Below, piece by piece: positions 5,205 through 43,376 of a stretch of 47,175 bases of DNA. The notes under the pieces are model-generated. The model made no database searches and was not told the DNA's origin. It worked only from the letters and a program-made list of their open reading frames with translations. The DNA lies in sequence record SRR22947727_2426; one strand, written 5' to 3'. The position numbers were made by a program, and so were the translations under genes. Position 1 is the stretch's first letter. Each line of letters begins with the position of its first letter.

Positions 5205-6533
5205 TTACGCCAAAATCACATCCACCGTCCGCGCCGCCGCTCCACGATGCATTTCCATCTCTGCCTGACCGCGTTTTGCCATGTCAGCGGCTTTCTCTGA
5301 ATCTGCCAGAACATCAGCAATCGCTTTTTCCAACAAATCCGCGTCACTTGCCGGTAATTGGATAATTCCCTCTGCCGCAACGAGATCAGCCATCACGCCG
5401 GAGAAATTTTGCATGTTCGGGCCGACGATCGTGGGCCGTCCTGCCATGACGGGTTCGACGGGGTTCTGGCCGCCTTTTCCGGTGATGCTTTTTCCGATGA
5501 CGACGGCGTCAGCAAGGAAAAACCAGGCGCGGAGCTCTCCGGTGGTGTTGGCGATTAATGCCGGATTTTCGAACGCACCCTGTTGGTTCGATGAACGTAC
5601 CCTATTGGTTCGTAAAACGGAGGAAATGTCCTCGGCCACGAGTTCAGCCTGTATTTCTCCCGCGCGTTCGGCGTGACGGGGAACGATCACGAGCGCGAGA
5701 TCGGGCGTGGTTTTTTGAAGGTTCCGCCAAATTTTTCCGAGCAAGGCTTCCTCGCCGGCGTGGGTGCTGCCGCCAAGTAAAATGGGCTGATCATCGGTCA
5801 CGCCGTTTTCGCGAAGCCAGGTTCGCAGCTCTTCGATTTTTGCGTCGGGGCGATCGGTGGCTTGATCTTCGTCGAATTTTACGCTGCGGGTCAGGGTGAT
5901 GTTGTTGCGATCAATTCCGAGACTGCTCCAGCGATTAAAATCACCTTCAAACGGAACGCAGACGTGATTCACCATGCCGAAAATGGGACGAATCATAGCG
6001 CCGAATTGCAAATAGCGTTTTTCGGATCGAGGCGATAACCGCGCGTTCACGAGATGAATCGGGATGTCGCGTTTTTGAATCTGGCGACACAAATTGGGCC
6101 ACACTTCGGCTTCGACGAGGATCAGTTTTTCGGGCCGGATTAGCTTGATAGCCCGCCACGTCACGAGCGGGACGTCGACGGGATTGTGCAACACGGTGAC
6201 GTTTTTGGAATCGATGTATTTGTCGTCGGCGAGTTTCAATCCGGTCGTCGTCGTAGTCGTGAGAACGATGTTGCGATCCGGTTCGCGGTCGAGCAGGGCG
6301 GCGATTATTTTTTCGGCGACGAGAATTTCGCCAACGCTGACGGCGTGAATCCAGAAATTTCCCTCGCGGCTCAGTTTTTCGATGACTTCGGGTTTATAAA
6401 ATCCAAAACGCTGGCGAAAATTCCGTGCGAGCCCACCGCGACGGATTCCTTTGATAATAAAGGAAGGAAAACTGACGATCAGAAAAATCGGCAGCAGCAA
6501 ATTGTAGATAAATAGAACGATGCAGAGAGGCAT
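5205..6533 (-). CDS. waaA: 3-deoxy-D-manno-octulosonate (Kdo) transferase
   Basis: WIHAVSVGE, TTTTG, EAEVWPN, NARLS, STHAGEE, VPRHAER, GGQNPVEP, GPNMQNF. Confidence 0.95.
   Translation of the reverse strand: MPLCIVLFIYNLLLPIFLIVSFPSFIIKGIRRGGLARNFRQRFGFYKPEVIEKLSREGNFWIHAVSVGEILVAEKIIAALLDREPDRNIVLTTTTTTGLKLADDKYIDSKNVTVLHNPVDVPLVTWRAIKLIRPEKLILVEAEVWPNLCRQIQKRDIPIHLVNARLSPRSEKRYLQFGAMIRPIFGMVNHVCVPFEGDFNRWSSLGIDRNNITLTRSVKFDEDQATDRPDAKIEELRTWLRENGVTDDQPILLGGSTHAGEEALLGKIWRNLQKTTPDLALVIVPRHAERAGEIQAELVAEDISSVLRTNRVRSSNQQGAFENPALIANTTGELRAWFFLADAVVIGKSITGKGGQNPVEPVMAGRPTIVGPNMQNFSGVMADLVAAEGIIQLPASDADLLEKAIADVLADSEKAADMAKRGQAEMEMHRGAAARTVDVILA
5565..5617. repeat. Dispersed 53-bp bipartite element, copy A (direct arrangement), inside waaA
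   Basis: attttc-GAAC gcaccctgttg GTTC-gat-GAAC gtaccctattg GTTC-gtaaaa. Confidence 0.9.
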
Positions 6534-6548
6534 GGCGAAGGGGCTGGA

Positions 6549-7106
6549 TCAGCTTCGGGCGAGAAAACTAATGCGGGTGTCGCCGTATTTCTTCTCTTTT
6601 TGCACGGTCCACAACGGCGTCTCGGGCAGGGGATTCCGCGCCAGGGTTTCGAGAACGAACAAGCTGTCAGGTTTCAGGGACTGAGCGAGATTTTCGAAAT
6701 TGAGCAAATTTTCAAGCAGCTCGGTGGTCTCTTCGTCGCGTGCGTAAGGGGGATCCGCGAAAATGAGATCGAATGTTGCCTCCGAGCTGAGCCGTTTGAT
6801 AAACGATTCGACGTCGGTTTTTCGCAGGGTGGCGTTTTCGGAGAGTTTGGTTTTCGTAAGATTCGCCGTGATGATTTCGCACGCGTTCCGATTTTCCTCC
6901 ACAAAAAGGGCTGATTTCGCGCCGCGGCTGAGGCTTTCAATCCCGAGCGAGCCGGTTCCCGCAAAGAGATCCAGCACCGTGGCATCGGCGATTCGGAGGC
7001 CAAGCGATGAGAATACAGCTTCGCGAACCCGATCGGTAGTCGGTCGGGTGAAGGTTTTGGGAACGGTGAGCTGAATTCCGCCTGATAGGCCTGCGATAAC
7101 GCGCAT
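6549..7106 (-). CDS. rsmD: 16S rRNA (guanine966-N2)-methyltransferase RsmD
   Basis: Start at MRVIAG (ATG 7106); RPTTDRVREAVFS, VLDLFAGTGSLGIESLSRGA, IFADPPY, KKYGDT. Confidence 0.93.
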   Translation of the reverse strand: MRVIAGLSGGIQLTVPKTFTRPTTDRVREAVFSSLGLRIADATVLDLFAGTGSLGIESLSRGAKSALFVEENRNACEIITANLTKTKLSENATLRKTDVESFIKRLSSEATFDLIFADPPYARDEETTELLENLLNFENLAQSLKPDSLFVLETLARNPLPETPLWTVQKEKKYGDTRISFLARS

Positions 7107-7228
7107 ATTGAGTGGTTGAACTCTTGGTCTTATTTCTGCGGACTTCAATGAATATCCGACGGCTTCCTGCCTGCGATATTTCCCTCAAATCCGCTTTGTT
7201 TGATTTCGAATTGCGATAGAGTCGGGGA

Positions 7229-10200
7229 AATGGGCCGTATCACTTCTATGTTCTCTTTCCGAATTCTTTTCTCTGCGTTGCTGGGTTTGCTCTTCATGAT
7301 AGCGGCGCATCAACCCATTTGTGGTCAAGATGTGCCGGTCGAGCAAATTGAAACGCTTCCGGCGGTTCCAGTGGATGAAGAGCCTGAGTCGGGTGGAGTA
7401 ATTGAAGACGGTCAGCCGGTTCCTGAACCGCTGCAGCCATGGATTCCGTGGGTTTCCAAAGGAATTCATGATGAAGCTATTCCTCGTCATCACGGCAATG
7501 GCATGGATCGGCTGCCGCTCTGGATTTCGCGGGCAACGATTGATGCGCAGCCTAAGGGAGCTGATTTTTCGGTTGAGGTGGAGGCTTTCGATAAAACGTG
7601 GCTTTCTCTTCCCGGAGGCGGAAGGCAGTGGCCGTCTCAGGTTGCGGTTGATGGCGTGCTGACTCCGGTGGTAGATCGAGCGGACTCGCCAACGATTTGC
7701 CTTTCCAAAGGGAAATCGACGATCACTGGAAAATTTGAGTGGAACGAGCTTCCGCAAAAAATAAGTATTCCTCCTCAAATAGGTCTGCTTGATTTGCAGG
7801 TGGGAGGTGTCAAGAAACCGGCTCCTTCACGTGATGCTGACGGTACGCTTTGGCTTCAGCGCGAAGCTTCTACAGAAGCGGTCGATGAAGATTTTCTTTC
7901 GATCAAAGTTCATTCATTGCTAGAAGACGGGATTCCTCTGTGGTTTGAAACTCGAATTGATCTGATTGTGGCTGGTAAGAGCCGCGAAGAAGCGTTGGGA
8001 GCGGTTCTGCCGCAAGGGTGGCAGCTGGCAACGATTACGTCGCCCATTCCGGTGGCGATTGATGAGAAGGGTTTTCTGAAAGCTCAACTTCGGGCGGGGC
8101 GATGGAGTATTGTTCTGCGTGCTTTTCAAAATGCTGAAGTGGATGAAATTCGGTTTGCTGAGGATGCGAAACCTGCTGCGGAGGATCAAGCGCTCGCTTA
8201 TGGGGCCTCGCCGGAGTTTCGACAGGCAGAAATCATGGGGCTTCCGCAAATCGATGCTGCGCAGACGCAAATGCCGGAAGAGTGGCGATCGTTTCCGATT
8301 TATCGTTGGGATACCAGTGGCGCGTTTCAACTTGTGGAACGAGTTCGTGGGCCGGGAGTTCGGGGGAAAGCACCGCTCACGATTCGCCGTTTGTTGTGGT
8401 TGGATGACGACGGAAAAATGCTGACCTATCATGATTCGTTGTCTGGGGAACTCCGCCAAATTCGGCGTCTTGATGCGGCGGATTCGCACCAGTTGGGCTC
8501 GGTCTCGGTGAATGGGGAGCCTCAACTGATCACTCATAATCCTGACGGAGGTGATCGCGGGTTTGAGATTCGCACGCCGCGGTTGGATGCGGTGGCAACG
8601 GGTCGCATTGAAATGCAGGATTCGTTATCAGCAACGGGATGGCAAACCGATGCAGGTAGTCTCACTGCCCATATGCAACTGTCTCCGGGCTATCGGCTGT
8701 TTGCGTTGATGGGAGCGGACTACACCAAGGGTGACTGGCTAACGTCATGGACGTTGCTTGATCTCTTTCTATTGCTCTTATTTACCCTCGCCGTTTTCAG
8801 ACTTCGTGGGTTTCTCGGGGCGTTGCTTGCTCTGGTCGCTTTTGGCCTGGCTTATCATGAGCCGGGCGCGCCGAAGTTGCCGTGGCTACTGCTGTTGGTG
8901 CCGGTGGCGTTGTGTGAGGTGAATTTAAGTGAGCGTTGGAGAAAGTGGAACGTGATCGTAAAATGGGGGGCTGCCGTCATTTTACTGATGTTTTTGGCCC
9001 CTTTTCTGGCCTATCAAATTCAGGGAGCCATTTTTCCGCAATTGGAACGGAAGGCGGCTTACAATCAGCCGGCGGCAAGTGGCGGATATGCTCCCTCAGT
9101 GCAGCGGGTAGCTTCACAGGTGGTGCAGCAATCTAGCAGCAGAGGTGCTTCTAAGAAGCCAACGTATTCTAAGTCGAAGGAAAATCTGAAAGCGGATCCT
9201 AAAGCAGTCATTCAAACCGGACCAGGCGTGCCGATGTGGACGTGGCGAACCATCGAGTTCGGATTTGATGGTCCGGTTTCCGCTTCGCAAACGGTGAAAC
9301 CTATTTTGATATCGCCCATTCAATCGCGAATTATTGGTGTGGTGCGCGTGCTGGCGTTGGTGCTTCTTGCCGTGCTGCTTTTTCGCCGCCGGAAGAAGAA
9401 GTCTGGATCGTCCGACTCGGAATCTGAACCAACTTCTAAAGGACTGCCTTCAGGAGTCACCAGTTCTGCCGCGATGGTTATCGGAGCGTTCATTCTCGTG
9501 GCGGCACCATCAAATGCGTCGGCGCAGTTTCCAGAGGCGGAAATGTTGAAGGAGTTGCGCAATCGACTTTCTGAAACCCCGCCCGGATTTCCCGATGCAG
9601 CCTCCGTTGCGAGCGCTTCGATGACGATTGAAGAGGAGGCTGTAACGCTTGAATTGGAATTCCATGCCGTTGCGAGAGCGGCAGTTCCCATTCCTGTGCC
9701 GATGAACGCGATGGAACCTGTGTCCGCTTCGTTTGCCTCGGGAGAACCAGCAACTTTGTTGCGAGATGAAGGCAAACTCTGGATTTTGCTGCCGGAACCG
9801 GGGATTCATCGCATCGTCGTGAAAGGCATTCTTCGAAACCGCAGCGACTGGGAATGGGGATTTGATCTGAAACCGCGAAAGCTCACGGTTGAAGCCTCGG
9901 GGTGGACTGTGAGCGGAATTCGCACAGATGGCAGTGCTGAGGATCAGGTTTTATTTTCCAAAATGCGTGAGGAAGGCAGTCAGGCGTCATCGGCTAATTA
10001 CGATGATCCGCGCACTAATCATGCGATTCTCGTTTCGCGCCAAATCGAACTCGGGCTGGTCTGGCGGGTGCAAACCACGGTGTCCCGACTTTCTCCAAAA
10101 GGCAGGGCGGTCGCTCTGAACGTGCCGCTTCTTGAAGGGGAAAAGGTCGTCAGCGCAGGGCGCACCGTAAAAGGCGGCGCGATCGAAGCTCGTCTCGGAC

Positions 10201-11396
10201 CGGGCACGGACTCGGTGAGTTGGGAAGGTGAGTTGACGCCCGACACGGAATTTTCTTTGCAAACACCGAAGGACGCCACATGGACCGAGCGGTGGCGACT
10301 TCTCGCATCCTCCGTTTGGAATGTTTCTTTCAATGGCCTTTCGCCGGTTTTTGAGAGTGCCGACGACCAACTTATTCCGTTGTGGCAGCCGTGGCCGGGT
10401 GAATCAGCCACCGTTTTGGTGTCGCGTCCTGAAGCGGTTGAAGGGGCTGCCGTGACGATCGATTCCGCCAAACACACGATGAGACCTGGCAAGCGTCAGC
10501 GCTCATCGGCGCTTGAGTTGCAGGTGCGGACAAGCCTCGGGGAAGATTTTCCCATTCAAATTCCTGCCGGATCAGAAGTCAGTTCGCTGATTCATGATGG
10601 AAAGAACATTCCCATCCGAAAAGAAGGAGATGCCGTGGTCGTTCCTCTTCGCCCGGGGCCACAATCGATAAAAGTTGAATGGCGTGGACCGAACACTCCT
10701 GAAGGGTGGACGCGAGCCGATTCCGTCAAGCTGCCCGTTGAAACGGCGAACGTCACCAGTCTCATTCGTCCATCGCGTGATCGATGGCTCATCGTCACTG
10801 ACGGTCCCCTTCGAGGACCTGCCGTTCGATTTTGGGCGGTGCTGGTCTTTGCCTTACTTGCTGCAGTGGTGCTTTCGCGCATTCCCGGATCACCGCTGCG
10901 ATTTCACACGTGGCTGCTGCTTTTGATAGGGCTTACCCAGATTCATATTGCCGGTTCATTGTTCATCATCGGTTGGTTGTTTTTCGCGCTATGGAAAGAC
11001 AAGGGCTTCTGGAAGCGGCTTTCCCCGCTCAAACATAACTTTCTCCAAATCGGTTTGATTGGTCTGACGATCATCATTGTTGGCCTGTTTATTGTGATTG
11101 CTTCTGCGGGACTGCTGGGAAATCCCGAAATGTATGTCGCTGGGGTCGGTTCCAGTGCGACGTATTTGAATTGGTTTTCCGCTCGCGCTCCCGTGGATTT
11201 ACCAACGCCCGGCTACTGGTCGATTTCCATCTGGTGGTTTCGTCTTGCGATGTTGCTGTGGGCGCTCTGGCTCGCGTATTCGCTCGTGCGATGGTTGCGG
11301 GATGGCTGGAAAAATTCAGCTGAGCGAGGCCATTTCAAATCTGGCAAAAAGCAAAAAGATAGCCTTCCTCCTGAATTACCAAAAAGGGACTCGTGA
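7229..11396 (+). CDS. Large multi-domain integral membrane protein of unknown function
   Basis: ORF 7200..11396 (start uncertain, ATG 7229 or 7247). Signal peptide, then two large beta-rich soluble regions, each followed by a bundle of hydrophobic helices. Confidence 0.8.
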
Positions 11397-11639: not shown

Positions 11640-11692
11640 GCTCCAGAATCATCAGGATTGGTTTCTCGAACTGGCCCTTTTCGATCGATTTT
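11640..11692. repeat. Dispersed bipartite element, degenerate copy G (inverted arrangement)
   Basis: GAAT catcaggattg GTTT-ctc-GAAC tggcccttttc GATC (11646-11686); same 4-11-4-3-4-11-4 geometry, flanks decayed. Confidence 0.6.
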
Positions 11693-11699: not shown

Positions 11700-12419
11700 A
11701 TGAAGAATTTTCTAAAAACCTCAATTCTCGCAACCGCTTCCGTGCTGGTGTTGTGCAATTGTCAGGAAAGCGGCCCGATTGAAGTGACGGAAGTTCGCGA
11801 AATTAATCCTGCCGTGAAACTTGAGATTCCGGTCTTGGCGAAATCCGACACCGAGCGATTTCGGATGTCAGAGAAGAAGCCACAAGCCCAACGACCGGCG
11901 ACTCCGGGGGCACCTCGTTTGATTTGGGATTTACCAGAAGGATGGAAGGAAGTTGAGACAACCCAGATGCGTGACGCAAATCTTCGTTTTGGCGAAAACG
12001 ATGAGGGCGAATGTTACCTCACTAAGCTTTCGGGCGGCGGTGGTGGATTGGTTGCCAATGTGAATCGCTGGCGTGGCCAAATGGGCCTGCCTGATGCGAA
12101 GCCTGAAGAAATCAACGCGTTGCCTAAGAAGCCGCTTTTTGGAACGGATGCGACGTATATTGATCTAGAAGGCGATTTCGGCGGAATGGGCGGCGGCGAA
12201 GCTAAGAAAGATTACAAAATGCTGGGCCTCGTTTTAACGGCGCAAGGCGGTGCGGTTTTTGTGAAAATGACCGGACCAAAAACTCTGGTGGACGCAAATA
12301 CGGCGAAGTTCGACGCTTTTTGTCAGTCGCTGAACGTAGATTTTGGCGCTGCTCCAGAAGCGCCTGCGGCACCCGCAGCACCAAGTGCCCCAGAATCCAA
12401 AGCTAACAAATCGGAATAA
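11700..12419 (+). CDS. Putative lipoprotein, first gene of the cytochrome c biogenesis operon
   Basis: ATG 11700 gives MKNFLKTSILATASVLVLCNC (signal peptide with Cys); WDLPEGW, ANVNRWRGQ, FVKMTGP; stop overlaps the next start (TAATG). Confidence 0.75.
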   Translation: MKNFLKTSILATASVLVLCNCQESGPIEVTEVREINPAVKLEIPVLAKSDTERFRMSEKKPQAQRPATPGAPRLIWDLPEGWKEVETTQMRDANLRFGENDEGECYLTKLSGGGGGLVANVNRWRGQMGLPDAKPEEINALPKKPLFGTDATYIDLEGDFGGMGGGEAKKDYKMLGLVLTAQGGAVFVKMTGPKTLVDANTAKFDAFCQSLNVDFGAAPEAPAAPAAPSAPESKANKSE

Positions 12420-16073: not shown

Positions 16074-17243
16074 CTACGAATTAATTATGACGCGTGAGCC
16101 GGAAGTCGGCATCACGATCCGGAGTTTTCCGACTGCCTTTTCAATTTTGGAAACGACGTCCGAAATCTCCACAGCGTTTGTGTATTTCGAAAGCGAAAAC
16201 CGAACGCTACTCCGAGCTCGATCCGATGAATAACCCATTGCTTTGATAATTCGGCTCGGCTTCACTGAACCCGTGCTGCACGCCGAACCGGGCGAACAAC
16301 AAACTCCAGCTTCGTCGAGAAGGATCAGTAAGCCTTCGCCGTCGACCCCCGGAAAGGATAGGTTTGAAGTGTTCGGTAATCGCTGATCGCGGTCTCCATT
16401 CACCTCGATGCCTTCGATTTTCTCAATAACAGCGGTTTCAAAATCGTCCCGCAACTGGCGCATCGAATCGTGGTGATCCATCGCTGCCAGCGTAATTTCA
16501 GCCGCTTTTCCAAAACCGACGATCCCCGCAACGTTTTCCGTCCCAGAACGTCGCCCGCCTTCCTGACCTCCGCCCAAAATCGTCGGCTGGAATCGTGAAT
16601 TCTGATTCACAAAAAGCGCGCCGATTCCCTTAGGCCCATGAAGTTTGTGAGCAGAAATTGAAAGCATCTGGATCGGTGAATCCGCGACCGATACAGGAAC
16701 TTTTCCGACCGCTTGAACCGCATCCGTATGGAAACAAACACCGTGGCTTTTCGCCGCTGCGGCAGCTTCTGCGATGGGCGAAAGCACACCCGTTTCATTG
16801 TTCGCAAAGATCAAACTCGCAATCGTCGTCCTGTCCGAAAGGGCTGATTCCCACGCATCAAGGTCGAGCCGTCCGCACGAATCAACAGGGTTCATTCGAT
16901 GAACGTACCCTATTGATTCGTAAAACTCACCCGCTTCAAAAATCGCGCTGTGTTCAACCGTGCTTGTAAGAATTTCTTTTCGATCCGGCCACGTGCCAAT
17001 GGCTGAACGCAACGCCGAATGATTCGACTCCGTCCCGCCGCTTGTGAAAATGATTTCTTCAGGCTGCGCTGAAATCAATGCGGCAACTTGCTCACGCGCC
17101 GTCTCGATTGCTTTTTTCGCGGCTTTTCCAAATCGATAACTCGCCGACGGGTTGCCATAATTCTCGTCGCCCAGCCACGGAAGCATTGCTTCGCGAACTT
17201 CGGGATCGAGAGCGGTTGTGGCGTTATTATCGAGATAGATCAT
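16074..17243 (-). CDS. iscS: Cysteine desulfurase (IscS/NifS group I)
   Basis: Start MIYLDNNATT (ATG 17243); GNPS, FTSGGTESN, NNETG, HTDAVQ, PLP-lysine SAHKLHGPKG, RSGTENV, catalytic GSACS. Confidence 0.93.
   Translation of the reverse strand: MIYLDNNATTALDPEVREAMLPWLGDENYGNPSASYRFGKAAKKAIETAREQVAALISAQPEEIIFTSGGTESNHSALRSAIGTWPDRKEILTSTVEHSAIFEAGEFYESIGYVHRMNPVDSCGRLDLDAWESALSDRTTIASLIFANNETGVLSPIAEAAAAAKSHGVCFHTDAVQAVGKVPVSVADSPIQMLSISAHKLHGPKGIGALFVNQNSRFQPTILGGGQEGGRRSGTENVAGIVGFGKAAEITLAAMDHHDSMRQLRDDFETAVIEKIEGIEVNGDRDQRLPNTSNLSFPGVDGEGLLILLDEAGVCCSPGSACSTGSVKPSRIIKAMGYSSDRARSSVRFSLSKYTNAVEISDVVSKIEKAVGKLRIVMPTSGSRVIINS
16873..16925. repeat. Dispersed bipartite element, copy B (inverted arrangement), inside the cysteine desulfurase gene
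   Basis: ccgcac-GAAT caacagggttc ATTC-gat-GAAC gtaccctattg ATTC-gtaaaa. Confidence 0.9.
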
Positions 17244-17368
17244 GAACGTTTTGGATAGAAAAACGAAACGACACAATTTCGATTTGAGCAACTGCTCGTC
17301 TAATCTTCCATCTCGCGCCGCGACCCCGCTATTGTGGCGCATGCTTCGAACCTGTCATCCTAGGTGTC

Positions 17369-18777: not shown

Positions 18778-21700
18778 TCACTTACCGCTTCCCAATTCTT
18801 CGTAGTATTTTTTCACCAACTCTCGGAATTCACTCGGAACAGGATCGCGATCAATCGGGGCGAGGGGATTTTCCTTATCCAATTTCGCCAGCTCTTCGGT
18901 TAAGCGATTCCGCATTTCTACGAGCGGATTGGTGATTCGTGTCGTGATTTGATCAGCTTGTGGCGGCAGGTTGTCGCGGCGATAATCAATCCGCATGGCG
19001 CGGGCATTGTCAGAAACTTTCGCGATTTCGTTTTTCAAATCCTCGTCCTCAACCATCTCTTCAATGTTGCTAAGCTTTTTCGCGAACTCCTCGTAGCCCT
19101 CGCCCGTGATCGGATCGAGTGAGATTTCTTCTTCAGGCTGATTGAAAAACAAAGGTTTTCCAGGCTGCGCTGCACCTCCGGGAGGTGGTCCATTTCGGCG
19201 ATCATCTCCGCCGCCGTTGTTTAGAGCACCGCCTCCACCACGTTGGTCGCCCGCTGATTCGCTTGGCGGAGGGTTGTTCGCAAAACCCTGACTATAGCCT
19301 TTGCCTTTGCCTTGGCCCTTTCCCTTACCCTTGCCTTTTCCTTCACCTTTTTCACCAGCTCCTTTTCCCTCACCCTCACCCTTGCCCTCTCCTTGACCTT
19401 TGCCCTTGCCGTCAGGCCCTTTTCCTTTTTCGCCTTTTACATTCTCAGCAAGCTGGCCCGGCTCACCTTTGCCTTTGCCCTCGCCGGGTCGTTTCGGCCC
19501 GTCCGATTTTTCACCTTTACCTGCGCCAGGTTGCTCTCCTTTTGGTGAACCTTTGGAGCTGTCGCCTTTGCCATCAGGGCTTGGCGTGCCCTTGCCTTTT
19601 TCCGCCATTTGCTGACCGCCGGGTTCCTGTCCGTCTGCTGCCGGGGTGAAGCCCTGTTCTTTCATTTTCTCCTCAATTTCTTCGTTCGAGGCGGATGGGA
19701 AGCCCGCATTTTTAAGCTGTTCTGCAGTGGCAACTTCTCCGGTTTCTGAGTTCTCAAACCGGGGTGCATCTCCAGGTTTTCCATCTGGTCCGCGCCGCTG
19801 TCCTTCCGCCACCTCCGTGTCCTCGCCATTTTTTCCGGGTTGATTGCCTCCTAATTTCTTCGCTTCTGCTTCCGTTTTTTCGATCAAGTCATCCAGCTCA
19901 CTTCGCGCAAGTCGCAGCGCATCCGCCTCGTTGCCGAGCACTTTTTCGGCGGCAGCTTCAATGTCCTTTTTCAATTCTTCAATTCCCCGAGCTGCGGCAC
20001 GCTCAGGCTCGACGGCCATTTCACGGCGATTGTAGCGGGTCAGCTGACTTGCCTCCGCCAACGAATTCTCCACCCCACTCGTCGTGCTTTCGCGAACGCC
20101 TTCGTAAAGCGCAGTTGAAAGCAACGGCTCAGATTCTTCGCTCTGCTCGCTGAGTTTGCGCATCTGATCAATCAAGTCATTCAGCTTCTTCTTTTGAGCG
20201 TCGATCTCCCGGGATAAAGCCAGATTTTCTGCCGGTGAATTGGCCTGATCAAAAACGTCTTTGCCCTGTTCACTTTCATCCAGCTTCTTGCCAATCGCTT
20301 CCTGGGCGTCGGCCAATTCCCGTGCCTTGTTCCGCATCTCGCGCATTTCGCCGGCGAATTGCCGTGAGGTCTTTTCGCGGAAATCTTCCTTCACCTCTTC
20401 CAATTCACGCTGTGCGCGTGTGGCTGAGTTTGCTGCGTCCGCGAGCTTGCCCTCATCGAGTTTCTCTGCGGTTTCTTTTACCGCCTCGCGTGTTTCCTCC
20501 AATTTCTCCCGCTCCTCCGCCATGTTGGCGCGATTCTCTTCGGAGTCCATTTTCTCGGTGACTTCATCAAGTTCCCGCAGGAGTTGCTCCTGTTCTTCTT
20601 GAAGGCGTTTCAGTTGGCGTTCCAATTCGGATTTCTCTTCTTCGGTTTTTGCTTCCTGGAGGGCGGACTCGAGTTCTTTGATTTTCTTCGCAATGGCTTC
20701 CTGACGTTTCGCCAATTCTTTCAAGCGGGTCAGAACTTCGAGGTTTGCCTTTTGTTCAGGCGTTGTCGGCATTTCCTCTTCGGCCATTCGCTGCTCTTCG
20801 TAGCGAAGCTCCTTCTGCTTCATTTCGAGCTCCATCATCTGCTGCTCTTTCGGTTGGCCCGGTTTTCCCTGACTGGGGTCTTGAGACATGGTCACGTTGT
20901 GCTCGCGATTTTTGGCTCTTACCAGCGTTTGGTAGGCATCTTTTGCAAAATCCAAAGCCGGCTCCAATTTTTTCCCATCCGGTTTTTCGAGAGCAACCGT
21001 CCATTCGCCGACGGCTTTCTCCATGAACCCACGAGCTTCGGTAAACAGAGCTTTCACCTCGGCGTCTTCGACTTTTTCCATCGCTTCATCAAGGAGACCG
21101 ATCGTGATCTCCTGAGACTGTTTCAAAACATCAACGTCGCTGGCGAGTTCTTCAATCGTCCGTCCCATTTGTTCACGACGAAGTAATTTCCAGCCCGCGT
21201 TGATGACGTCTTTTTGCATCTTCATCAACTTCTCTGACTCGCCGCCTTCGCCCTCGCTGGGCTCACCTCCCTGGGATTCTTTTTCGCGAAAGATGTCTTC
21301 GAATTCCCGGACTTCAGCGAAAAACATGTCGCTCATGGTGCGGCGCACTTTCCCATCGGGACCGAGATCTTCTGCCCAGAGGTGATACGAAACCATGTCC
21401 CGTGGCTTGGCTCCGATCTCTTCAAAATTGAATTGCGTGCTGAGCGGATGATTTTTTCCGCCCGCTAGTTTTCCATCTGCAAGCGTGACATCACGATCTT
21501 CTTTCCCGACTTCAAAAGTGACGCCGACACTCATCACACCGATGTCATCCCAGACTTTGCCTTCCACTGGCATTTCCTGAAGGGCTGAGACTTCCACGTC
21601 GGTTTTAGGAAATTCAAATTCCAATTTCGGTGGCTGATTTTTCTTCACGGTCACCGTGATGATCGGCGGTCGCTTATTGGCTCGTTCGCGATCATCGACC

Positions 21701-22821
21701 AGATGCAGCCGGTATTTTTGAGTCTCTTTCGGCTGATGGGATGCCACCAATACGCTGGGATTTTCAGAACTTGCCTTTAGCGAGATGATTTCCCCATCGT
21801 CCATTCCGAAGAGTTCAGCGTCTTTGACTGGTTTATTAATCGTCATGGACCACGCCAAATCAGAACCTTCCAGCAGTGAAACTTTGCGGGTGTCCTCGAT
21901 CGTTTTCGTTTTTTGTTCAGCGTAGGCTGGCGGCGTGATTGTCGCGTCAGCCTGACCTAGCTTGGGATGAACATACGTGGTGATCTTGAATTCGTCCGAC
22001 TGCTCCCCATCAAATTCGATTCGATAAACCGCGTCCGAATCAACTTTAGTGATCAATCCGGCAAAGACCTGTTCATCCAAGCCCGGCTGTAAGGTCACCC
22101 GACCGCGCTCGGCGCCTTCCTCTCCCGGATCGCGAATCACGACCATTGCGTTGGGCGGAATTCGTCCGTTGAACTTTGCTTCAACAACCAACTTTGTGCC
22201 GCGTTCGACTTCTGCGTCGCCGGGATTTACTTTGATTTCGTAATCACCCAGTAGATCAGGAATGGGCTGTTCGATTTTCGGTTCCGGCTTCGCCACATTT
22301 TTTGCGAGCTGGAGGATCCGATTGTTTTCACTGAGCAATCCGAACATCACTGCAAAAAAAGCGATCGCCGCAACGAGCTGAAGTGCGCCAGCCTTCACCA
22401 AACGGCTTCGCGAAATTTGTTTCACCCAATCATTTTTCAGCGCGTGATTCACCGCATCGAAGACAACCTGCTCCTGCAAATAGCCAAGCTCGCCATTCGG
22501 CCCCGGCTTCTGTTCGACCGCAGTAAGAAGTGCCGCCTGCAAATCCGGGTTCTCGCTCTCGATTTTATCCGCAATTTTTTTGACCGACGTCGTTTTTGAA
22601 TCGGCCCACCACAAAGCAATCAGCGCCGCAAAAATAACGCCGACTGCGACGGTGATGACAGCCGGCCACGACCAAAAATTCTCCAGCTTCGCGAGAACGA
22701 AAAGCACCGCTGCAATCGCCGATCCGATCAGTAAAACGGCAGCGAGTGCTTTGCGCCGCCGCAATGCTGCCTCAGCAGAAATGAGCGGGCGAAGTTTTTG
22801 ATCGAGGACGTTATGGATCAT
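18778..22821 (-). CDS. Large membrane-anchored coiled-coil protein (DUF4175-like) with Gly/Lys/Glu low-complexity region
   Basis: Three N-terminal TM helices, Ig-like beta region, long coiled coil, GKGEG-type repeats, C-terminal DPVPSEFRELVKKYYEEL. Confidence 0.8.
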   Translation of the reverse strand: MIHNVLDQKLRPLISAEAALRRRKALAAVLLIGSAIAAVLFVLAKLENFWSWPAVITVAVGVIFAALIALWWADSKTTSVKKIADKIESENPDLQAALLTAVEQKPGPNGELGYLQEQVVFDAVNHALKNDWVKQISRSRLVKAGALQLVAAIAFFAVMFGLLSENNRILQLAKNVAKPEPKIEQPIPDLLGDYEIKVNPGDAEVERGTKLVVEAKFNGRIPPNAMVVIRDPGEEGAERGRVTLQPGLDEQVFAGLITKVDSDAVYRIEFDGEQSDEFKITTYVHPKLGQADATITPPAYAEQKTKTIEDTRKVSLLEGSDLAWSMTINKPVKDAELFGMDDGEIISLKASSENPSVLVASHQPKETQKYRLHLVDDRERANKRPPIITVTVKKNQPPKLEFEFPKTDVEVSALQEMPVEGKVWDDIGVMSVGVTFEVGKEDRDVTLADGKLAGGKNHPLSTQFNFEEIGAKPRDMVSYHLWAEDLGPDGKVRRTMSDMFFAEVREFEDIFREKESQGGEPSEGEGGESEKLMKMQKDVINAGWKLLRREQMGRTIEELASDVDVLKQSQEITIGLLDEAMEKVEDAEVKALFTEARGFMEKAVGEWTVALEKPDGKKLEPALDFAKDAYQTLVRAKNREHNVTMSQDPSQGKPGQPKEQQMMELEMKQKELRYEEQRMAEEEMPTTPEQKANLEVLTRLKELAKRQEAIAKKIKELESALQEAKTEEEKSELERQLKRLQEEQEQLLRELDEVTEKMDSEENRANMAEEREKLEETREAVKETAEKLDEGKLADAANSATRAQRELEEVKEDFREKTSRQFAGEMREMRNKARELADAQEAIGKKLDESEQGKDVFDQANSPAENLALSREIDAQKKKLNDLIDQMRKLSEQSEESEPLLSTALYEGVRESTTSGVENSLAEASQLTRYNRREMAVEPERAAARGIEELKKDIEAAAEKVLGNEADALRLARSELDDLIEKTEAEAKKLGGNQPGKNGEDTEVAEGQRRGPDGKPGDAPRFENSETGEVATAEQLKNAGFPSASNEEIEEKMKEQGFTPAADGQEPGGQQMAEKGKGTPSPDGKGDSSKGSPKGEQPGAGKGEKSDGPKRPGEGKGKGEPGQLAENVKGEKGKGPDGKGKGQGEGKGEGEGKGAGEKGEGKGKGKGKGQGKGKGYSQGFANNPPPSESAGDQRGGGGALNNGGGDDRRNGPPPGGAAQPGKPLFFNQPEEEISLDPITGEGYEEFAKKLSNIEEMVEDEDLKNEIAKVSDNARAMRIDYRRDNLPPQADQITTRITNPLVEMRNRLTEELAKLDKENPLAPIDRDPVPSEFRELVKKYYEELGSGK

Positions 22822-22866: not shown

Positions 22867-22919
22867 TTAAACGAATCAACAGGGTCTGTTTGATGAACCA
22901 ACCCTGTTGGTTCGTTAAA
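22867..22919. repeat. Dispersed bipartite element, copy C (inverted arrangement), intergenic
   Basis: ttaaac-GAAT caacagggtct GTTT-gat-GAAC caaccctgttg GTTC-gttaaa. Confidence 0.9.
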
Positions 22920-27573: not shown

Positions 27574-28290
27574 ATGTCCGCCAGCATGATCGAAGCGAGC
27601 GAAAAATCAACCGTCACCCGCGCCCAAATTGCCGATAGCATTTGGCTGGATGGTCGTCTCGCGATTTGGCATGAAACGTCGAACTGGCTGGCGTTGAGTG
27701 ATGTTCACTACGGTTACGAGCTTTCGCGAAAGGCAATCGGTGGTTTGTGGCCAAATTGGGGAATGGCAGCGATCGAGGAACGGCTGGGTGAAATGATTGA
27801 TGAATATGCGCCCGAAAAGCTAATTCTCGTCGGCGATATTATCGATTCCAGCTTCGTCGGCATGGAGGGGATTCAATTTCTCGAGAAAATCATCGAGCGC
27901 ACGCCGGGCGAGGTCATTTTTGTGGAAGGGAATCACGACCGGGGCACGATCAAAGCCAAATTCGACTGGGTTCCGCAGTTTGATATTGACGGATTTCTAT
28001 TTCATCATGGTCATCAGCCGACGCCTTTGGGAGATTATAAAACGGAGGTTGTGGGACATTTTCATCCGTCGGTGAATCTTCGCGATGGAGCGGGGATGTC
28101 GCTGCGAATTCCATCGCTGGTTCAGGAGAGCTACAAAAATCAGGCGGACCGCTGGGTACTGCCGGCCTTTTCCCCGTGGGCCGGAGGTGGACGATTTAAA
28201 ATCGCGGAAGGTTGCGAAAGTGCTCGGCAATGGGTTGCGAGCACGACGCGAGTTTTTGAACTTCACGATCCAACCCTTTTGGATCGATGA
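27574..28290 (+). CDS. Calcineurin-like metallophosphoesterase (PdeM/ICC-like)
   Basis: SDVHYG, VGDI, GNHD, HHGH, GHFHP, LPAF motifs. Confidence 0.85.
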   Translation: MSASMIEASEKSTVTRAQIADSIWLDGRLAIWHETSNWLALSDVHYGYELSRKAIGGLWPNWGMAAIEERLGEMIDEYAPEKLILVGDIIDSSFVGMEGIQFLEKIIERTPGEVIFVEGNHDRGTIKAKFDWVPQFDIDGFLFHHGHQPTPLGDYKTEVVGHFHPSVNLRDGAGMSLRIPSLVQESYKNQADRWVLPAFSPWAGGGRFKIAEGCESARQWVASTTRVFELHDPTLLDR

Positions 28291-28313
28291 ACAGACCTTA
28301 GTAGTTCGTAACA
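28261..28313. repeat. Dispersed bipartite element, copy D (direct arrangement), spanning the metallophosphoesterase stop codon
   Basis: cttcac-GATC caacccttttg GATC-gat-GAAC agaccttagta GTTC-gtaaca. Confidence 0.8.
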
Positions 28314-33319: not shown

Positions 33320-34846
33320 TCAGTATTTCACACCAGTAAGTGCGGCCCACGCATACCATTTTTTCGACATTTGGGCGACCTTGCTCGCCTGTTTTTCAGC
33401 AACATTGTTGGTCTCAGTTCGATCCAACCCTAGGTTGTAAAGTTCCCAACCATTTTTGGGGCTTTCCCAAACGAGTTTCCAAACTCCTTCGCGGATGGCC
33501 CGTTTTTTCGACCAGAACCAGAATAGCGGGGCAGGGCGTTTGATCGCCGCTTCTTCTCCGGTCAAAACCGGCACCAAACTGATTCCTTCCGGCCTGAGAA
33601 GGGGCTTCCCGTCATTCGACATCGGGAATTTACCATCGGCGACATCGAGAAAAGTGGGCATGAAATCGATGATGTGACCGACCTGATCCGTTTTTGAACC
33701 GGCTTTGATTTTCCCAGGCCAGCGAATGACAAATGGCGAGGCGACACCGCCTTCGTGAGTGTGCGATTTGTAGCGAGCGAACGGCGCATTCTGCGCGTAG
33801 GCCCAGTTTGGCCCAACATGACTGTACCAGTCTTTTGGTCCGGGACGATGTTCGGTATTTCCTGCGCCGCCGGGCGTTTCCGCACAGGCTCCGTTGTCCG
33901 AGAGAAACATGATGATTGTGTTGTCGGCGATTTTTAAATCATCGAGCGTTGTAAGAACCCGACCGATGTTTTGGTCCATGTTGTCGACCATGGCGGCGTA
34001 GGTTTCCATCCGCAGGCTCTCCCATTCGGTGTCCTCATTTTTGCCTTCGGCGAACGGTTTGTTGTTTGAATTTAGCCCCGGATCTGGAAACAACTTTGGA
34101 TCGATCAAACCCATTTCGACTTGGCGATCATATCGACTTTTACGAAGTGCATCCCAACCGGCGTCGTATTTGCCTTTATATTTAGCGATATCCTCCGGTT
34201 TGGCGTGGAGTGGGTAATGGGGAGCGGTGTATGGGAGGTAGTGGAAAAACGGCTTCTTGGTCGCCGATTGCTTTGTGATGGTTTCGATCGCGTGATCGGT
34301 GAAAGCGTTCGACGTGAAGAAATCGTCAGGGAATTCCGTGATTCGTTCGTCGTTTTGCCCAAAAAAGCGGACTTTGCCGCCTTTGAATTTTGGATCAGGC
34401 TGGTTGGGATCAAAGAAGTTGCAGCAGCCGTCCCATAATCCGTAGCTGGCCTCGAAGCCTCGATCGAATGGGCGGTGAGGCGCTTTGGAACCGTTGTGCC
34501 ATTTGCCGCTCAGGCCGGTTTGGTATCCCGCGAGTTTCAGGGCTTCGCCAAGCGTCAGCATGTTTTCGTTGAGAAGTTCAATGCCCTTGCCGCCATTTCG
34601 TGGGTAAAGCCCTGTCAGCAGACTGGCGCGCGTCGTGGTGCATTTGGCGTTGTTGTAAAAATTCGTGAACTGCATTCCTTCGCTGCAGATCCGGTCGATA
34701 TTTGGCGTCGAGATTTCGCTGCCGTAGCAGCCGATGTCCGACCAGCCCATGTCATCCGCCATGATCAGGATGATATTTGGCTGGTCTGCCGCCCGCGAGG
34801 TGAGGGCGGTCGTGAAGAAAATGATGAGAGCGAGAAATCGAATCAT
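33320..34846 (-). CDS. Arylsulfatase (formylglycine-dependent, Cys-type)
   Basis: PNIILIMADDMG, CTTTRASLLTG (CxxxR), GKWHNG, APHYPLHA, SDNG, ELYNL. Confidence 0.93.
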   Translation of the reverse strand: MIRFLALIIFFTTALTSRAADQPNIILIMADDMGWSDIGCYGSEISTPNIDRICSEGMQFTNFYNNAKCTTTRASLLTGLYPRNGGKGIELLNENMLTLGEALKLAGYQTGLSGKWHNGSKAPHRPFDRGFEASYGLWDGCCNFFDPNQPDPKFKGGKVRFFGQNDERITEFPDDFFTSNAFTDHAIETITKQSATKKPFFHYLPYTAPHYPLHAKPEDIAKYKGKYDAGWDALRKSRYDRQVEMGLIDPKLFPDPGLNSNNKPFAEGKNEDTEWESLRMETYAAMVDNMDQNIGRVLTTLDDLKIADNTIIMFLSDNGACAETPGGAGNTEHRPGPKDWYSHVGPNWAYAQNAPFARYKSHTHEGGVASPFVIRWPGKIKAGSKTDQVGHIIDFMPTFLDVADGKFPMSNDGKPLLRPEGISLVPVLTGEEAAIKRPAPLFWFWSKKRAIREGVWKLVWESPKNGWELYNLGLDRTETNNVAEKQASKVAQMSKKWYAWAALTGVKY

Positions 34847-34925: not shown

Positions 34926-34978
34926 TTTTACGAATCAACTCTATTGGTTCAACGAACAGACCCTGTTGGATCGTGGAA
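34926..34978. repeat. Dispersed bipartite element, copy E (direct arrangement), intergenic
   Basis: ttttac-GAAT caactctattg GTTC-aac-GAAC agaccctgttg GATC-gtggaa. Confidence 0.88.
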
Positions 34979-34987: not shown

Positions 34988-35542
34988 TCACCCTAACATT
35001 TCATCCACTTTCTCCAGAATCTCCTCAATGGGCCAGAGTCGGCCGATGCCTTCATAACCGCAGGCGAGCATGCCTTCTTCGGGGCCAATGAATTCGACGT
35101 TCCGCTCTCTTAACGTCACGACGTTTTTTTGAGTCGCCGGATGCCGCCACATTTTCCCGTTCATGGCTGGCGCTATTAAGATAGGGGCGAGTGTTGCGAG
35201 GTGAATTGCGGAAAGGGTGTCGTCCGAGAGTCCGAGGGCGAATTTTGCAACCACGTTGGCGGTGCAGGGAGCTACGAGAATCAGATCGGCGTCATCAGCG
35301 AGCTGAATGTGGCCCGGGTGCCAGCTTTGTTTTTCGTCGTATAAACTTGTGGTCACCGGATTTTTCGAAAGCACCTGCAAGGTTAGTGGCGTGATGAATT
35401 CCGTCGCGTCCTTCGTCATGACGACATGGACGGAGTGACCGCGTTTGGTCAATTGACTGGCCAGATCAGCGGCTTTGTAAGCTGCGATCGATCCGGTGAT
35501 GCCGAGGACGATGTTTTTTCCGATGGGTGGTTTTTCTGACAC
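34988..35542 (-). CDS. coaC: Phosphopantothenoylcysteine decarboxylase, stand-alone (HFCD flavoprotein)
   Basis: GITGSIAAYKA, HIQLA, APCTAN, PAMN, LACGYEGIGRL; 184 aa with no CoaB domain. Confidence 0.88.
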   Translation of the reverse strand: MSEKPPIGKNIVLGITGSIAAYKAADLASQLTKRGHSVHVVMTKDATEFITPLTLQVLSKNPVTTSLYDEKQSWHPGHIQLADDADLILVAPCTANVVAKFALGLSDDTLSAIHLATLAPILIAPAMNGKMWRHPATQKNVVTLRERNVEFIGPEEGMLACGYEGIGRLWPIEEILEKVDEMLG

Positions 35543-35591: not shown

Positions 35592-35945
35592 TCAGCCACG
35601 GCCAATAATTAGCTTTGCGAACTTGTTTTGCTCGGCAGGTTTCCCGCCTGCGGCACTCAGGATTGGACGATAAAGGGAATTCAGAAACGGATATTCAACG
35701 AAGTAGTAGCGAGTTATTCCTTCTTCACTTGGTCTTTTCTGCCAGGCTCTCCACTCGGGAGTTTGTGCACGGGGAATAAAGGTTTTTGAAGTCAGGAAAC
35801 GGTTTCCTCCAAGAGGATCTTCAATCCGCGCCACAAAAGCAAGAGGAGCCAAGTAAACTAATGTCGCCAAAACGAAAATAACTAGCGCAGTCCCGCAAAT
35901 TCTGAAAAGCCGCTCGCCACGCCTTTAATTCGTTTCTTCCGCCAT
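35592..35945 (-). pseudogene. Small membrane-protein pseudogene, paralog of 36081..36350
   Basis: ATG 35945 reads MAEETN*RRGERLFRICGTALVIFVLATLVYLAPL with an in-frame TAA at 35925-35927, where the paralog has Tyr. Confidence 0.65.
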
Positions 35946-36080
35946 CAAAACCAGCGTATCACACCCCAAAATTCTTTCCCACTCTCAACTTGGTTTCTTG
36001 AATCATCGAACACCAATGATGAAATTCGCGAATTTGTTTGATTCACCCTCAAGGTTGGCTGTGGAGATCAAGACTGGTCG

Positions 36081-36350
36081 TTAAAAGGTGTCGAGAATGG
36101 GGATTTTCAAATAAAAGCCAAACCTTGGCATCGTTGGCGCAGCAACAGAGGCTGATTGAAAGTTCAATGAAGCTGAATCGGAAGAGGGGCTGGGCATCAT
36201 GACGGCGAAATCGAGAAAGCGCTTATCTACTGACTGTTTTTCAAGTCGAGCCAAATAGACCAATGCCGCCGCCACGAGAACTACCAGCCAAATTCCACAA
36301 TTTCTAAAAAGCCTCTCGCAACGCCTGTATTTCGTTTCATCCGCCATCAT
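36081..36350 (-). CDS. Small hypothetical single-TM protein (possibly a remnant)
   Basis: MMADETKYRRCERLFRNCGIWLVVLVAAALVYLARLE; N-terminus duplicated ~402 bp away. Confidence 0.5.
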   Translation of the reverse strand: MMADETKYRRCERLFRNCGIWLVVLVAAALVYLARLEKQSVDKRFLDFAVMMPSPSSDSASLNFQSASVAAPTMPRFGFYLKIPILDTF

Positions 36351-36390
36351 AACCAGCCTATCACGGCGTAAAATTCTTCCCACTCTCAAC

Positions 36391-41132: not shown

Positions 41133-41179
41133 AAGAATAGAAATTGAAGGAATTTTTCAACTGAAACCAGTTTAAGATT

Positions 41180-41803: not shown

Positions 41804-41834
41804 TATTTTTACCGAATTTTCAAACGGATTAGTT

Positions 41835-42119
41835 ATGAAAGACTTATTTCAGGTGATTGACACCATTCAGCTTAGCGAAAAGGCAACGATTCTCACGGAA
41901 ACAGAAAATGTTTACGTGTTTAAAGTTGATCAACGCGCGAACAAGTTGGAGATTAGACAAGCCGTCGAGAAATTGTTCTCGAAAAAGGTTACTGCTGTGA
42001 GAACAGCTAATTATCAGGGCAAGAAGAAGCGCGAGCGTCGCGCTGATTTTGGTCGCACTAAAAAGTGGAAGAAGGCTTTTGTGAAGCTTGCTGAAGGCGA
42101 AACTATTGAATTCGTATAA
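41835..42119 (+). CDS. rplW: 50S ribosomal protein L23
   Basis: ATG 41835; SEKA, ANKLEIRQAVEKLF, WKKAFVKL. Confidence 0.97.
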   Translation: MKDLFQVIDTIQLSEKATILTETENVYVFKVDQRANKLEIRQAVEKLFSKKVTAVRTANYQGKKKRERRADFGRTKKWKKAFVKLAEGETIEFV

Positions 42120-42163
42120 TTTCGAATCAATCGAACTAAATATTTTTAAACCGGGTCAGAACG

Positions 42164-43012
42164 ATGCCACTTAAAACCTACAAACCATTTACTCCGTCGA
42201 GCCGCTATAAGGTGCTGCCCGACTTCGCTGAGATCACGAAGACAACTCCTGAGAAGAGTCTTTGTCGTCCATTGAAAAAGTCCGGAGGACGTAATAATCG
42301 AGGACGTATCACGTGTCGCCACCGTGGTGGTGGTCACAAGCGGAAGTATCGCATGATCGACTTCAGGCGGAATCGTCGTGACGAAGCGGCGAAGGTGCTT
42401 TCAATTGAGTATGATCCAAACCGCACGGCGCGGATCGCGCTGATCGAATACGGCGACGGACAGAAGTCTTACATCATTGCTCCACGTGGGCTAGAGGTTG
42501 GTGCTTCTGTGATGTCCGGAGAGAATGCTCCAATCAAGCCGGGTAACGCGCTTCCAATTTCTGCGATTCCAACAGGATCAGACATCCACTGTGTGGAGCT
42601 TATTCCTGGTCGTGGTGCACAAGTTGCGCGAAGCGCTGGTCAGGCCTGCGTTCTTTCTAACCGTGAGAAAGGCTATGGACTTGTGAAGATGCCATCGGGT
42701 GAGATTCGCAAGATCAATGAAAAGTGCTATGCCGTCATGGGTGAAGTGGGTAACCGCGATCACATGAATATTGTCAGCGCGAAGGCTGGCCGGACTCGTT
42801 GGCTGGGAATTCGGCCTTCCGTTCGCGGAATGTGTATGAACCCGGTTGATCACCCAAATGGCGGTGGTGAAGGTAAGTCGAAATCAGGTGGTGGTCGCCA
42901 GCATTTGTCGTCGCCTTGGGGTCACGTTAAGGGGCAAAAGACTCGCCAGAAGCACAAGCCGAGCGATAAGTTTATTATCGAGCGCCGGAAGAGTAAGAAA
43001 CGCCGCCGTTAA
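42164..43012 (+). CDS. rplB: 50S ribosomal protein L2
   Basis: [34 protein letters not shown]. Confidence 0.99.
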
Positions 43013-43050
43013 TTGGTGATCACTTTGTATAATTCAAAACGTATTTAAAA

Positions 43051-43323
43051 ATGGGACGCTCACTCAAAAAAGGACCTTTTGTCGATCAGAAGCTTTTGAT
43101 CAAGATCGACGCAATGAATGACTCGGGTCAAAAACGCCCGATCAAAACCTGGTCACGTCGCTCAATGGTGACTCCGGATTTTGTTGGTCACACCTTCCTC
43201 GTTCACAACGGCAAAGATTTTCTTTCCGTGTTCGTGACTGAGAACATGGTTGGCCACAAGCTCGGTGAATTTTCTCCAACTAAGAAAACTTCCCCTCACC
43301 AAGGGCAAGGTGCTAAACGATAA
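43051..43323 (+). CDS. rpsS: 30S ribosomal protein S19
   Basis: [26 protein letters not shown]. Confidence 0.99.
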
Positions 43324-43376
43324 TTTTACGAAGCAATAGGGTTGGTTCATTGAACGGACCCTATTGATTCGAAAAA
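43324..43376. repeat. Dispersed bipartite element, copy F1 (inverted arrangement), abutting the rpsS stop codon
   Basis: ttttac-GAAG caatagggttg GTTC-att-GAAC ggaccctattg ATTC-gaaaaa. Confidence 0.92.

Follow-up and report, generated by a model that had tools for sequence, protein, structure and literature searches.

Several families of short repeats known from bacterial chromosomes resemble the element analysed here, a near-palindromic dyad present at seven loci of a 47,175-nt stretch of sequence record SRR22947727_2426 (the window; its positions refer to the whole stretch). The BIME-2/REP elements of Escherichia coli (bacterial interspersed mosaic elements made of repetitive extragenic palindromes) are extragenic palindromic doublets at gene 3' ends, bound by chromosomal proteins (gyrase, IHF). 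Rickettsia palindromic elements (RPEs) lie inside protein-coding genes, where they are read in an open frame, and lengthen the protein by insertion. DNA uptake sequences (DUS) and uptake signal sequences (USS) are described, in the passages available of three papers (PMC1939737, PMC7811141, PMC2817400), as taxon-specific motifs of hundreds to thousands of copies in both orientations, rare in genes without close homologues, placed in coding regions by substitution in tolerant frames and forming inverted pairs after genes, with a spacing more even than random. According to the same passages, USS were found to be significantly evenly spaced by Karlin et al. (as cited in PMC1939737), an even distribution is the expected consequence of molecular drive (PMC7811141), and USS occur within coding frames (PMC2817400).

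The element studied here is likest to this last group. Its motif is common to one genus (729-1586 units in 3 of 3 genomes, 0-12 in 28 of 28 others), it shows no strand polarity, and its spacing is more even than random in all three species (coefficients of variation, CVs, of 0.54, 0.45 and 0.45); it differs in the phylum of its host, which is here the Verrucomicrobiota. We consider it probable (roughly 0.8) that the element is a genus-specific signal read in double-stranded DNA, whose copies avoid one another through redundancy within a few kilobases, whichever process drives it. It is neither a structured RNA nor an active transposon.

The genome under study (G000; 5.97 Mb in 229 contigs) was searched with an nhmmer model built from the seven clear copies of the window and refined by two rounds of iteration over the full genome; matches at E<=1 were counted as loci and merged when within 150 nt. 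This yielded 929 loci, and a block-shuffled genome gave four matches, all at E > 2.8 and hence none at E<=1. The distribution of intervals is bimodal: before merging, 213 are shorter than 200 nt and correspond to tandem copies, and the main mode lies at 5-6 kb. The 769 within-contig intervals have a mean of 5697 nt, a median of 5214 nt and a CV of 0.54, and only 9 of them measure 200-1000 nt. The observed spacing and that of four null models, all simulated on this genome, were as follows.

Observed loci: CV 0.54; 36 intervals shorter than 2 kb.
Null, loci placed uniformly on their own contigs: CV 1.01 ± 0.04 (lowest of 300 simulations 0.90); 192 intervals shorter than 2 kb.
Null, one locus per random intergenic gap of at least 50 nt: CV 0.94 ± 0.04; 153 intervals shorter than 2 kb.
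Null, random gene boundaries with equal weight: CV 0.94; 218 ± 11 intervals shorter than 2 kb.
Null, random gene boundaries weighted by gap length: CV 0.92; 203 ± 11 intervals shorter than 2 kb.

The uniform and random-intergenic-gap nulls were compared with an earlier model of 825 loci, for which the observed CV was 0.54 and 25 intervals were shorter than 2 kb. When the cut-off is relaxed from E 1e-8 to E 1, the CV takes the values 0.69, 0.61, 0.57, 0.57 and 0.54; this drop on admitting weaker copies is what the thinning of a regular process predicts. Loci defined without any model, by a regular expression allowing up to 2 mismatches, gave a CV of 0.59, with 90 intervals shorter than 2 kb against 253 ± 12 expected.

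The form of the spacing is that of a renewal-like process, with a soft short-range exclusion and a memoryless tail without upper bound. The edge-corrected pair correlation stays below 0.3 up to 2 kb, reaches 1 at ~3.5-4 kb and 1.2 at 5-6 kb, and is flat beyond. The hazard of meeting the next locus (Kaplan-Meier, with contig ends taken as censoring) rises from 0.007 per kb at 0-0.5 kb to 0.16 at 3-3.5 kb and 0.31-0.35 at 5-9 kb, and remains at 0.24-0.30 out to 30 kb; it is near zero over the first 1-2 kb, half of the plateau is reached at ~3.3 kb, and from ~5 kb the hazard is constant. The largest gap between loci is 25 kb. No correlation was found between adjacent intervals (649 pairs; Pearson 0.03, Spearman 0.01), and the CV of the distance to the k-th neighbour follows CV1/sqrt(k), with values of 0.39, 0.32, 0.27 and 0.23 for k = 2, 3, 4 and 6. 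A periodic lattice is ruled out by r = 0.03, by the single weak overshoot at 5-6 kb and by the flat hazard between 5 and 30 kb. Compositional islands were likewise rejected as the main cause of long gaps, the element-poor tiles being ordinary in GC content and trinucleotide distance. The strength of copies also varies with their distance: on average the weaker member of a neighbouring pair reaches 26 bits when the two are less than 2 kb apart, and this mean rises to 30 bits for distances of 2-5 kb and to 34-37 bits for larger ones (Spearman correlation 0.24, p = 1e-11). The persistence of a copy depends on the distance to its neighbour over a few kilobases.

The earlier note on this DNA, made from the window alone, had called the loci quasi-periodic at about 6 kb and had proposed a genome-wide comparison of inter-site distances with an exponential distribution. 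The distances are clearly non-exponential (CV 0.54 against 0.92-1.01 under the nulls). Of the quasi-periodicity, the non-randomness has stood, the spacing being more even than chance in three species; the lattice has not (r = 0.03, flat pair correlation, plateaued hazard).

Genes were taken from a crude caller (4804 genes), which makes the context counts approximate, and Pfam and PDB checks cover the named genes only. Intervals that contain one gene average 2543 bp (mean gene length 1107 bp); with two genes the figure is 1767 bp per gene, and with five or more it is ~1100 bp per gene, the genome average. The constraint is on physical distance and not on gene count. A regularity of operon layout or gene number was considered and rejected: the CV is not smaller for gene counts (0.585) than for distances in bp (0.540), and such a layout fails as an explanation because short genes with a copy on each side are missing. 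The element occupies 37% of convergent gaps, as against 21-23% of tandem and divergent ones, and its copies abut stop codons, lying a median of 11 nt (11-12) past the stop and 42 nt ahead of the next start. Among the 929 loci, 623 are intergenic, 194 extend across a gene end and 112 lie inside an open reading frame (ORF); 817 are thus not fully within an ORF, and 63 are located deep inside one, with over 150 nt to each of its ends.

Each basic unit measures 21 bp and has an asymmetric 7-bp core with a 7-bp arm on either side, the two arms being inverted repeats (CGAAYCA-ACCCTRT-TGRTTCG); since they form a palindrome, a flip of the core is equivalent to an inversion of the unit. An element comprises two such units 22 bp apart, in either orientation, and a locus comprises one or two elements, tandem elements having a period of 54 nt. 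For the 14-mer formed by the core and the 3' arm, the 5.97-Mb genome has 437 perfect matches, and 1861 when as many as 2 mismatches are allowed (shuffle expectation ~110). Unit pairs are inverted at a 14-mer offset of 29, i.e. a unit period of 22 nt, in 381 cases and direct at offset 22 in 220; the opposite inverted order (offset 15) accounts for 8 pairs only. Most loci (599 of 929) measure 40-60 nt and a further 151 measure 90-120 nt, with a maximum of 228 nt; 416 have 2 units and 166 have 3-5.

The inverted-type copies form DNA hairpins of -13 to -17 kcal/mol, flanked 3' in the consensus by A's and not T's on both strands. The one direct-type copy that was folded (5564-5622) gave no hairpin (z = -1.1). 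In an analysis of 1860 units, Watson-Crick counts equalled the expectation of independence in 7 of 7 arm pairs. The sequence is conserved and the pairing is not; as the arms show no pairing covariation, what is read is double-stranded DNA. No strand polarity was detected (median strand difference 1.5 bits; neighbours in the same orientation in 398 cases against 371), and a polar signal of the Chi or KOPS (FtsK-orienting polar sequence) type is ruled out by this ratio and by the near-palindromic structure. Rfam contains no family matching the element, a tRNA being its sole match, and the GTAG tag is absent from the consensus.

The nearest named relatives of the IscS protein encoded in the window belong to the Verrucomicrobiales and to metagenome-assembled genomes of Verrucomicrobiota. 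When at most 1 mismatch is allowed, the three species of this genus have 1198, 729 and 1586 copies of the 14-mer, compared with 0-12 in 28 further genomes from the same family and order, in which reversed-pattern controls gave 0-10. In the second species (G001), 400 kb of one contig hold 49 loci, whose 48 intervals have a median of 7.1 kb and a CV of 0.45, with 46 of the 48 at least 4.2 kb long. In the third (G002), 285 kb hold 72 loci and 53 intervals (median 3.4 kb, CV 0.45, none below 1.2 kb). The hazard there starts at 0 and has passed 0.5 per kb by 3-4 kb. The sample consists of 19 contigs picked for having matches, which biases the density of loci upward. Self-avoidance is thus a property of the genus, and its scale is species-specific (medians ~3.4, 5.2 and 7.1 kb, exclusion distances ~2, 3.3 and 5 kb).

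The sites themselves are shared between species that are only ~74% identical in coding DNA. Of 58 G001 elements tested by blastn, 18 had both flanks collinear in G000, and 17 of these had a copy at the projected site; conversely, 18 of 23 G000 elements with close collinear flanks had a partner in 513 kb of G001 (both tests being conditional on alignable flanks). Of the five sites found only in G000, one lies inside a gene of equal length in G001, where substitutions alone differ; one is intergenic and corresponds to a half-decayed copy in G001; one is itself a weak copy, of 12 bits; and two fall in unalignable gaps. These comparisons indicate that copies are inherited vertically and kept in place across species, and that they arise and decay by substitution in place.

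Copies inside genes point in the same direction. The in-ORF loci are translated in the open frames of the element, and two of the seven window loci, in the genes of a Kdo transferase (KdtA) and an IscS-type cysteine desulfurase, are of this kind. IscS aligns without gaps to NFS1 and IscS structures across the element; at their elements PanC is 2 residues shorter than its homologue, GalM 2-4 residues longer, and KdtA has 3-8 extra residues (PDB alignment). All 4 of the proteins inspected, among the 63 loci deep in ORFs, had therefore acquired the copy by overlay, without the ~17 residues that an insertion would add. At the iscS site, orthologues from other genera already have a similar native peptide, and the element is kept in G001 and G002, where third-codon identity at this one locus is 0.88/0.82 within the element versus 0.50/0.40 outside it (G001/G002). 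The lack of a ~17-residue gain and the third-codon conservation in iscS indicate that in-gene copies were formed from native sequence and are maintained as DNA. The G001 match to iscS (C23:66189-67358) contains one internal TGA, and the stretch around its element reads open. Random transposition, already doubted from the window intervals, fits these data poorly: orthologous sites are kept, species differences are substitutions, and in-gene copies replace native codons.

As for the origin of the self-avoidance, the maintaining pressure would act on a DNA segment a few kilobases long, in which a single copy suffices. A second copy within range would be redundant and would decay, and an isolated copy would be fully maintained. 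If fragments bearing the signal were preferentially taken up or recombined, the signal would spread by molecular drive, with the length of the fragment or tract setting the scale of the spacing. Such an uptake-signal-like drive is the likeliest cause in our opinion, which is a tentative one; it is proposed because biased uptake is the best-documented process with a one-copy-per-segment logic. ComEC, DprA, ComEA-like proteins and secretins were found in the genome. In the titles, abstracts and passages searched (supplements and subscription journals lay outside the search), even spacing is described for USS and DUS only; in titles and abstracts, under the same restriction, we found neither a comparable repeat of Verrucomicrobia nor kilobase self-avoidance of a REP-like dyad.

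A number of observations weigh against such a drive. Competence protein families also occur in non-competent bacteria, and the E. coli control gave matches likewise. The element is a dyad of 43-50 bp carrying ~50 bits, as opposed to the 9-12 bp core of DUS and USS; it occurs once per 3.5-8 kb instead of about once per kb, and 7-12% of its loci lie in ORFs compared with 35-65% for DUS and USS. It is hard to picture so long a motif arising stepwise by substitution, and the strict 22-bp spacing and orientation preference of the units (381 versus 8) look like the site of a dimeric DNA-binding protein. In 400 kb of the sister genus (G003) there is no abundant dispersed repeat, and hence no "dialect" of its own. 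Elements of G001 are sparse in species-specific DNA (6 in 25 tiles with few G000 homologues versus 43 in 75 other tiles, a small sample), a depletion that would suit an uptake signal and is equally expected of any old, vertically inherited site. Finally, the evidence for overlay comes from four proteins and one ortholog pair. A separate feature of the sister genus is a CRISPR-like array of 16 identical repeats ~73-76 nt apart (G003:C93:10472-11588).

The strongest competitor, possible but doubtful, is that a dedicated dimeric DNA-binding protein with a reach of a few kilobases recognises the dyad, and that selection keeps about one site per reach; the dyad could be bound by a nucleoid-associated protein, be a target of gyrase or a topoisomerase (like BIME-2 in E. 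coli) or anchor a loop or domain. It is the selection on chromosomal position favoured by the earlier note, with repulsion substituted for periodicity. High information content, the fixed 22-bp phase and strong orientation preference of the units, and loci of small and uniform size agree with a protein site, as does the reading of double-stranded DNA implied by the lack of pairing covariation. So do the preservation of orthologous sites even within essential genes, with conserved synonymous positions, the constraint on distance and not gene number, and the enrichment in convergent gaps (37% versus 21-23%), where positive supercoils collect. A landmark is harder to reconcile with gaps that have no upper bound (a flat hazard from 5 to 30 kb and gaps to 25 kb in compositionally ordinary DNA), with the lack of a lattice and with the 2-fold difference in scale between sister species. 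The element is absent from the 400 kb of the sister genus, so that its function as a landmark would have to be non-essential or of recent origin. No candidate protein was identified, and no large arrays lie beside a candidate gene, the largest locus measuring 228 nt. The pattern is, moreover, not specific to landmarks, because any signal redundant within a few kilobases gives the same spacing. The likeness to the gyrase and IHF sites of BIME-2/REP lies in extragenic palindromic doublets at gene 3' ends; to our knowledge, kilobase-scale self-avoidance has not been reported for BIMEs. The further step, to an unprecedented chromosome-organising system in which a putative dimeric protein acts on ~900 sites and its domain range is written as a species-specific minimum spacing, appears unlikely. 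The same doubt attaches to its corollary, that the spacing pressure would be strong enough to overwrite codons of iscS and panC.

We regard as improbable a selfish REP- or MITE-like element (MITE, miniature inverted-repeat transposable element) whose close pairs are lost afterwards by recombination between copies, together with the intervening DNA, or are avoided at insertion by target immunity. The resemblance to REPs and REPINs (REP doublets) is considerable: hundreds of vertically inherited copies of short palindromic units, mainly extragenic and abutting stops (median 11 nt), in doublets with one preferred orientation. Inverted doublets dominate here, as in REPINs and CGTC-type REPs (PMC3116915, PMC3733652), and the latter, in the passages available, likewise lack a dedicated transposase and include intragenic units (PMC3733652). 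The degenerate member typical of close pairs would also lower recombination between copies. The element nevertheless carries no GTAG tag, its stem of 7 and loop of 7 fall outside the sizes given for the CGTC families in the accessible part of PMC3733652, and its arms do not covary. Tandem copies 54 nt apart are common, and its kilobase repulsion is at odds with the random distribution in extragenic space reported for REPINs in the part available of PMC3116915.

No RAYT (REP-associated tyrosine transposase) gene is linked to the element in G000 or G001, where no copy lies within 1.5 kb on either side of Y1 genes. The sole G000 match to Y1_Tnp (IS200/RAYT-like, C171:2452-2754) has an in-frame TAA near the N-terminus and looks broken, its nearest copies lying ~2 kb away. 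Y1_Tnp genes are found in 19 of 21 relatives irrespective of the element, and G002, the species richest in copies, has one weak match only. A selfish origin is further opposed by sites stable across species ~74% identical in coding DNA, by the rarity of the element in species-specific DNA, and by in-gene copies that are overlays and not insertions. Insertion of a MITE or transposon, including the in-frame insertion typical of RPEs, was rejected on the basis of the overlays at 4 proteins and the equal-length ortholog pair; RPEs differ in that here native codons are replaced, with a length change of -2 to +8 residues.

Least probable by far is an RNA-level element: a terminator, or a hairpin that stabilises 3' ends, occurring once in each transcription unit and spaced as operon lengths dictate. 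The position just past stops (median 11-12 nt), the enrichment in convergent gaps and the folding of inverted-type copies as DNA (-13 to -17 kcal/mol) would suit such an element, but it is contradicted by the lack of compensatory changes in the arms, by a third of the unit pairs being direct and the folded direct-type copy having no hairpin, by A's instead of T's after the hairpin on both strands, by 63 loci deep in ORFs, by the missing single short genes between copies (one-gene intervals averaging 2543 bp) and by the lack of a matching Rfam family.

The kilobase self-avoidance of a sequence-specific site is rare evidence, obtainable from sequence only, that some agent acts on bacterial DNA segment by segment, over a set length. 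Were biased uptake or recombination the driver, the element would represent an uptake-signal-like system found outside the Proteobacteria and unusual in its dyad architecture, and the lengths of fragments or tracts in uncultured bacteria could be read from the hazard curve. If the driver is a binding protein, the sites would mark a domain-scale organisation of the nucleoid in the Planctomycetes-Verrucomicrobia-Chlamydiae (PVC) group and would be direct targets for chromatin immunoprecipitation (ChIP) and Hi-C. Under either driver, three species with differing spacing scales (~3.4, 5.2 and 7.1 kb) constitute a natural experiment.

In the window, repeat finding revealed a 50-nt family with copies beginning at 5569, 16877, 22871, 28265, 34930, 43328 and 43382. 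According to the genome-wide model, the seven loci (listed without strand) are the following.

5566-5617: element copy of two direct units (nhmmer 47.9 bits, E 5e-12), inside the Kdo-transferase gene 5205-6533 (minus strand), residues ~305-321.
11646-11688: degenerate intergenic copy (14.8 bits, genome-wide E 0.11), upstream of ORF 11700-12419.
16876-16925: element copy of inverted units (50.8 bits), inside the gene of an IscS/NifS-type cysteine desulfurase, 16074-17342 (minus strand), residues 139-155.
22871-22919: intergenic element copy of inverted units (50.1 bits), 24 nt past the stop of the BatA/VWA gene 22943-25105 (minus strand).
28262-28311: weaker copy of direct units (29.8 bits, E 2e-6), at the 3' end of the metallophosphoesterase ORF 27574-28290, in a convergent gap.
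34926-34978: intergenic element copy (47.3 bits), between the flavoprotein gene 34988-35542 (minus strand) and the sulfatase gene 33320-34846 (minus strand).
43324-43426: two tandem copies 54 nt apart, one strong (43325-43376, 53.6 bits) and one weak (43382-43426, 20.1 bits).

Five of the loci score 48-54 bits and that at 28262 scores 30, with 20 for the second tandem copy and 14.8 for the copy at 11646, which can also be aligned with the other window copies. Pfam domains Glycos_transf_N and Glycos_transf_1 lie on either side of the copy in the Kdo transferase, and both genes beside 34926-34978 were assigned by Pfam. The copy at 22871-22919 forms a DNA hairpin of -16.6 kcal/mol and has an orthologous copy in G001 (C23:59361-59409).

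The seven loci and intervals listed in the earlier note are real: the measured intervals (6077, 5231, 5994, 5394, 6665 and 8398 nt) agree with it to within 2 nt, with a CV of 0.167 (population) or 0.183 (sample). The note was also right that the last locus holds two tandem copies (54 nt apart) and that the longest interval spans the rpsL-rpsS block; ARAGORN and Pfam place tRNA-Met, rpsL, rpsG, fusA, rpsJ, rplC, rplD, rplW, rplB and rpsS within these 8398 nt. Additional copies of equal score, which it had named as grounds for abandoning the regularity, are not found in the window at E<=1 with the iterated model. The copy it predicted less than 1 kb upstream of the window exists as a weak match at -144 to -119 (E 0.1); no copy was detected by the genome-wide model between 43426 and the end of contig C67, a distance of 6.1 kb. 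This run of loci is atypically regular, since a CV of 0.18 or less occurs in only 4.5% of 332 six-interval runs of the genome (median 0.40).

The window consists of contigs C217 and C67 of the assembly, joined via a 55-nt overlap at 36242-36296, and because it spans two contigs the 8398-nt interval rests on this join. A direct repeat of 140 nt, 77% identical (35840-35979 and 36242-36381), straddles the overlap point and is therefore probably the cause of the assembly break.

The last locus begins 5 nt after rpsS (confirmed by Pfam) and overlaps the start of ORF 43387-44271. This ORF encodes 294 amino acids between rpsS and rplV in the S10 operon, its start overlapping the second tandem copy; it matches no Pfam family and gave only weak coiled-coil-like matches (E > 0.04). 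Two very large ORFs of the window, 7278-11396 (1372 aa) and 18778-22821 (1347 aa), belong to no Pfam family, and the latter includes short CCTTTGCC-like repeat units at 19298-19486. The gene of ribosomal protein S3 (44743-45552) includes G+C-rich short repeats (direct-repeat family D2, 45389-45538) that encode a long C-terminal tail.

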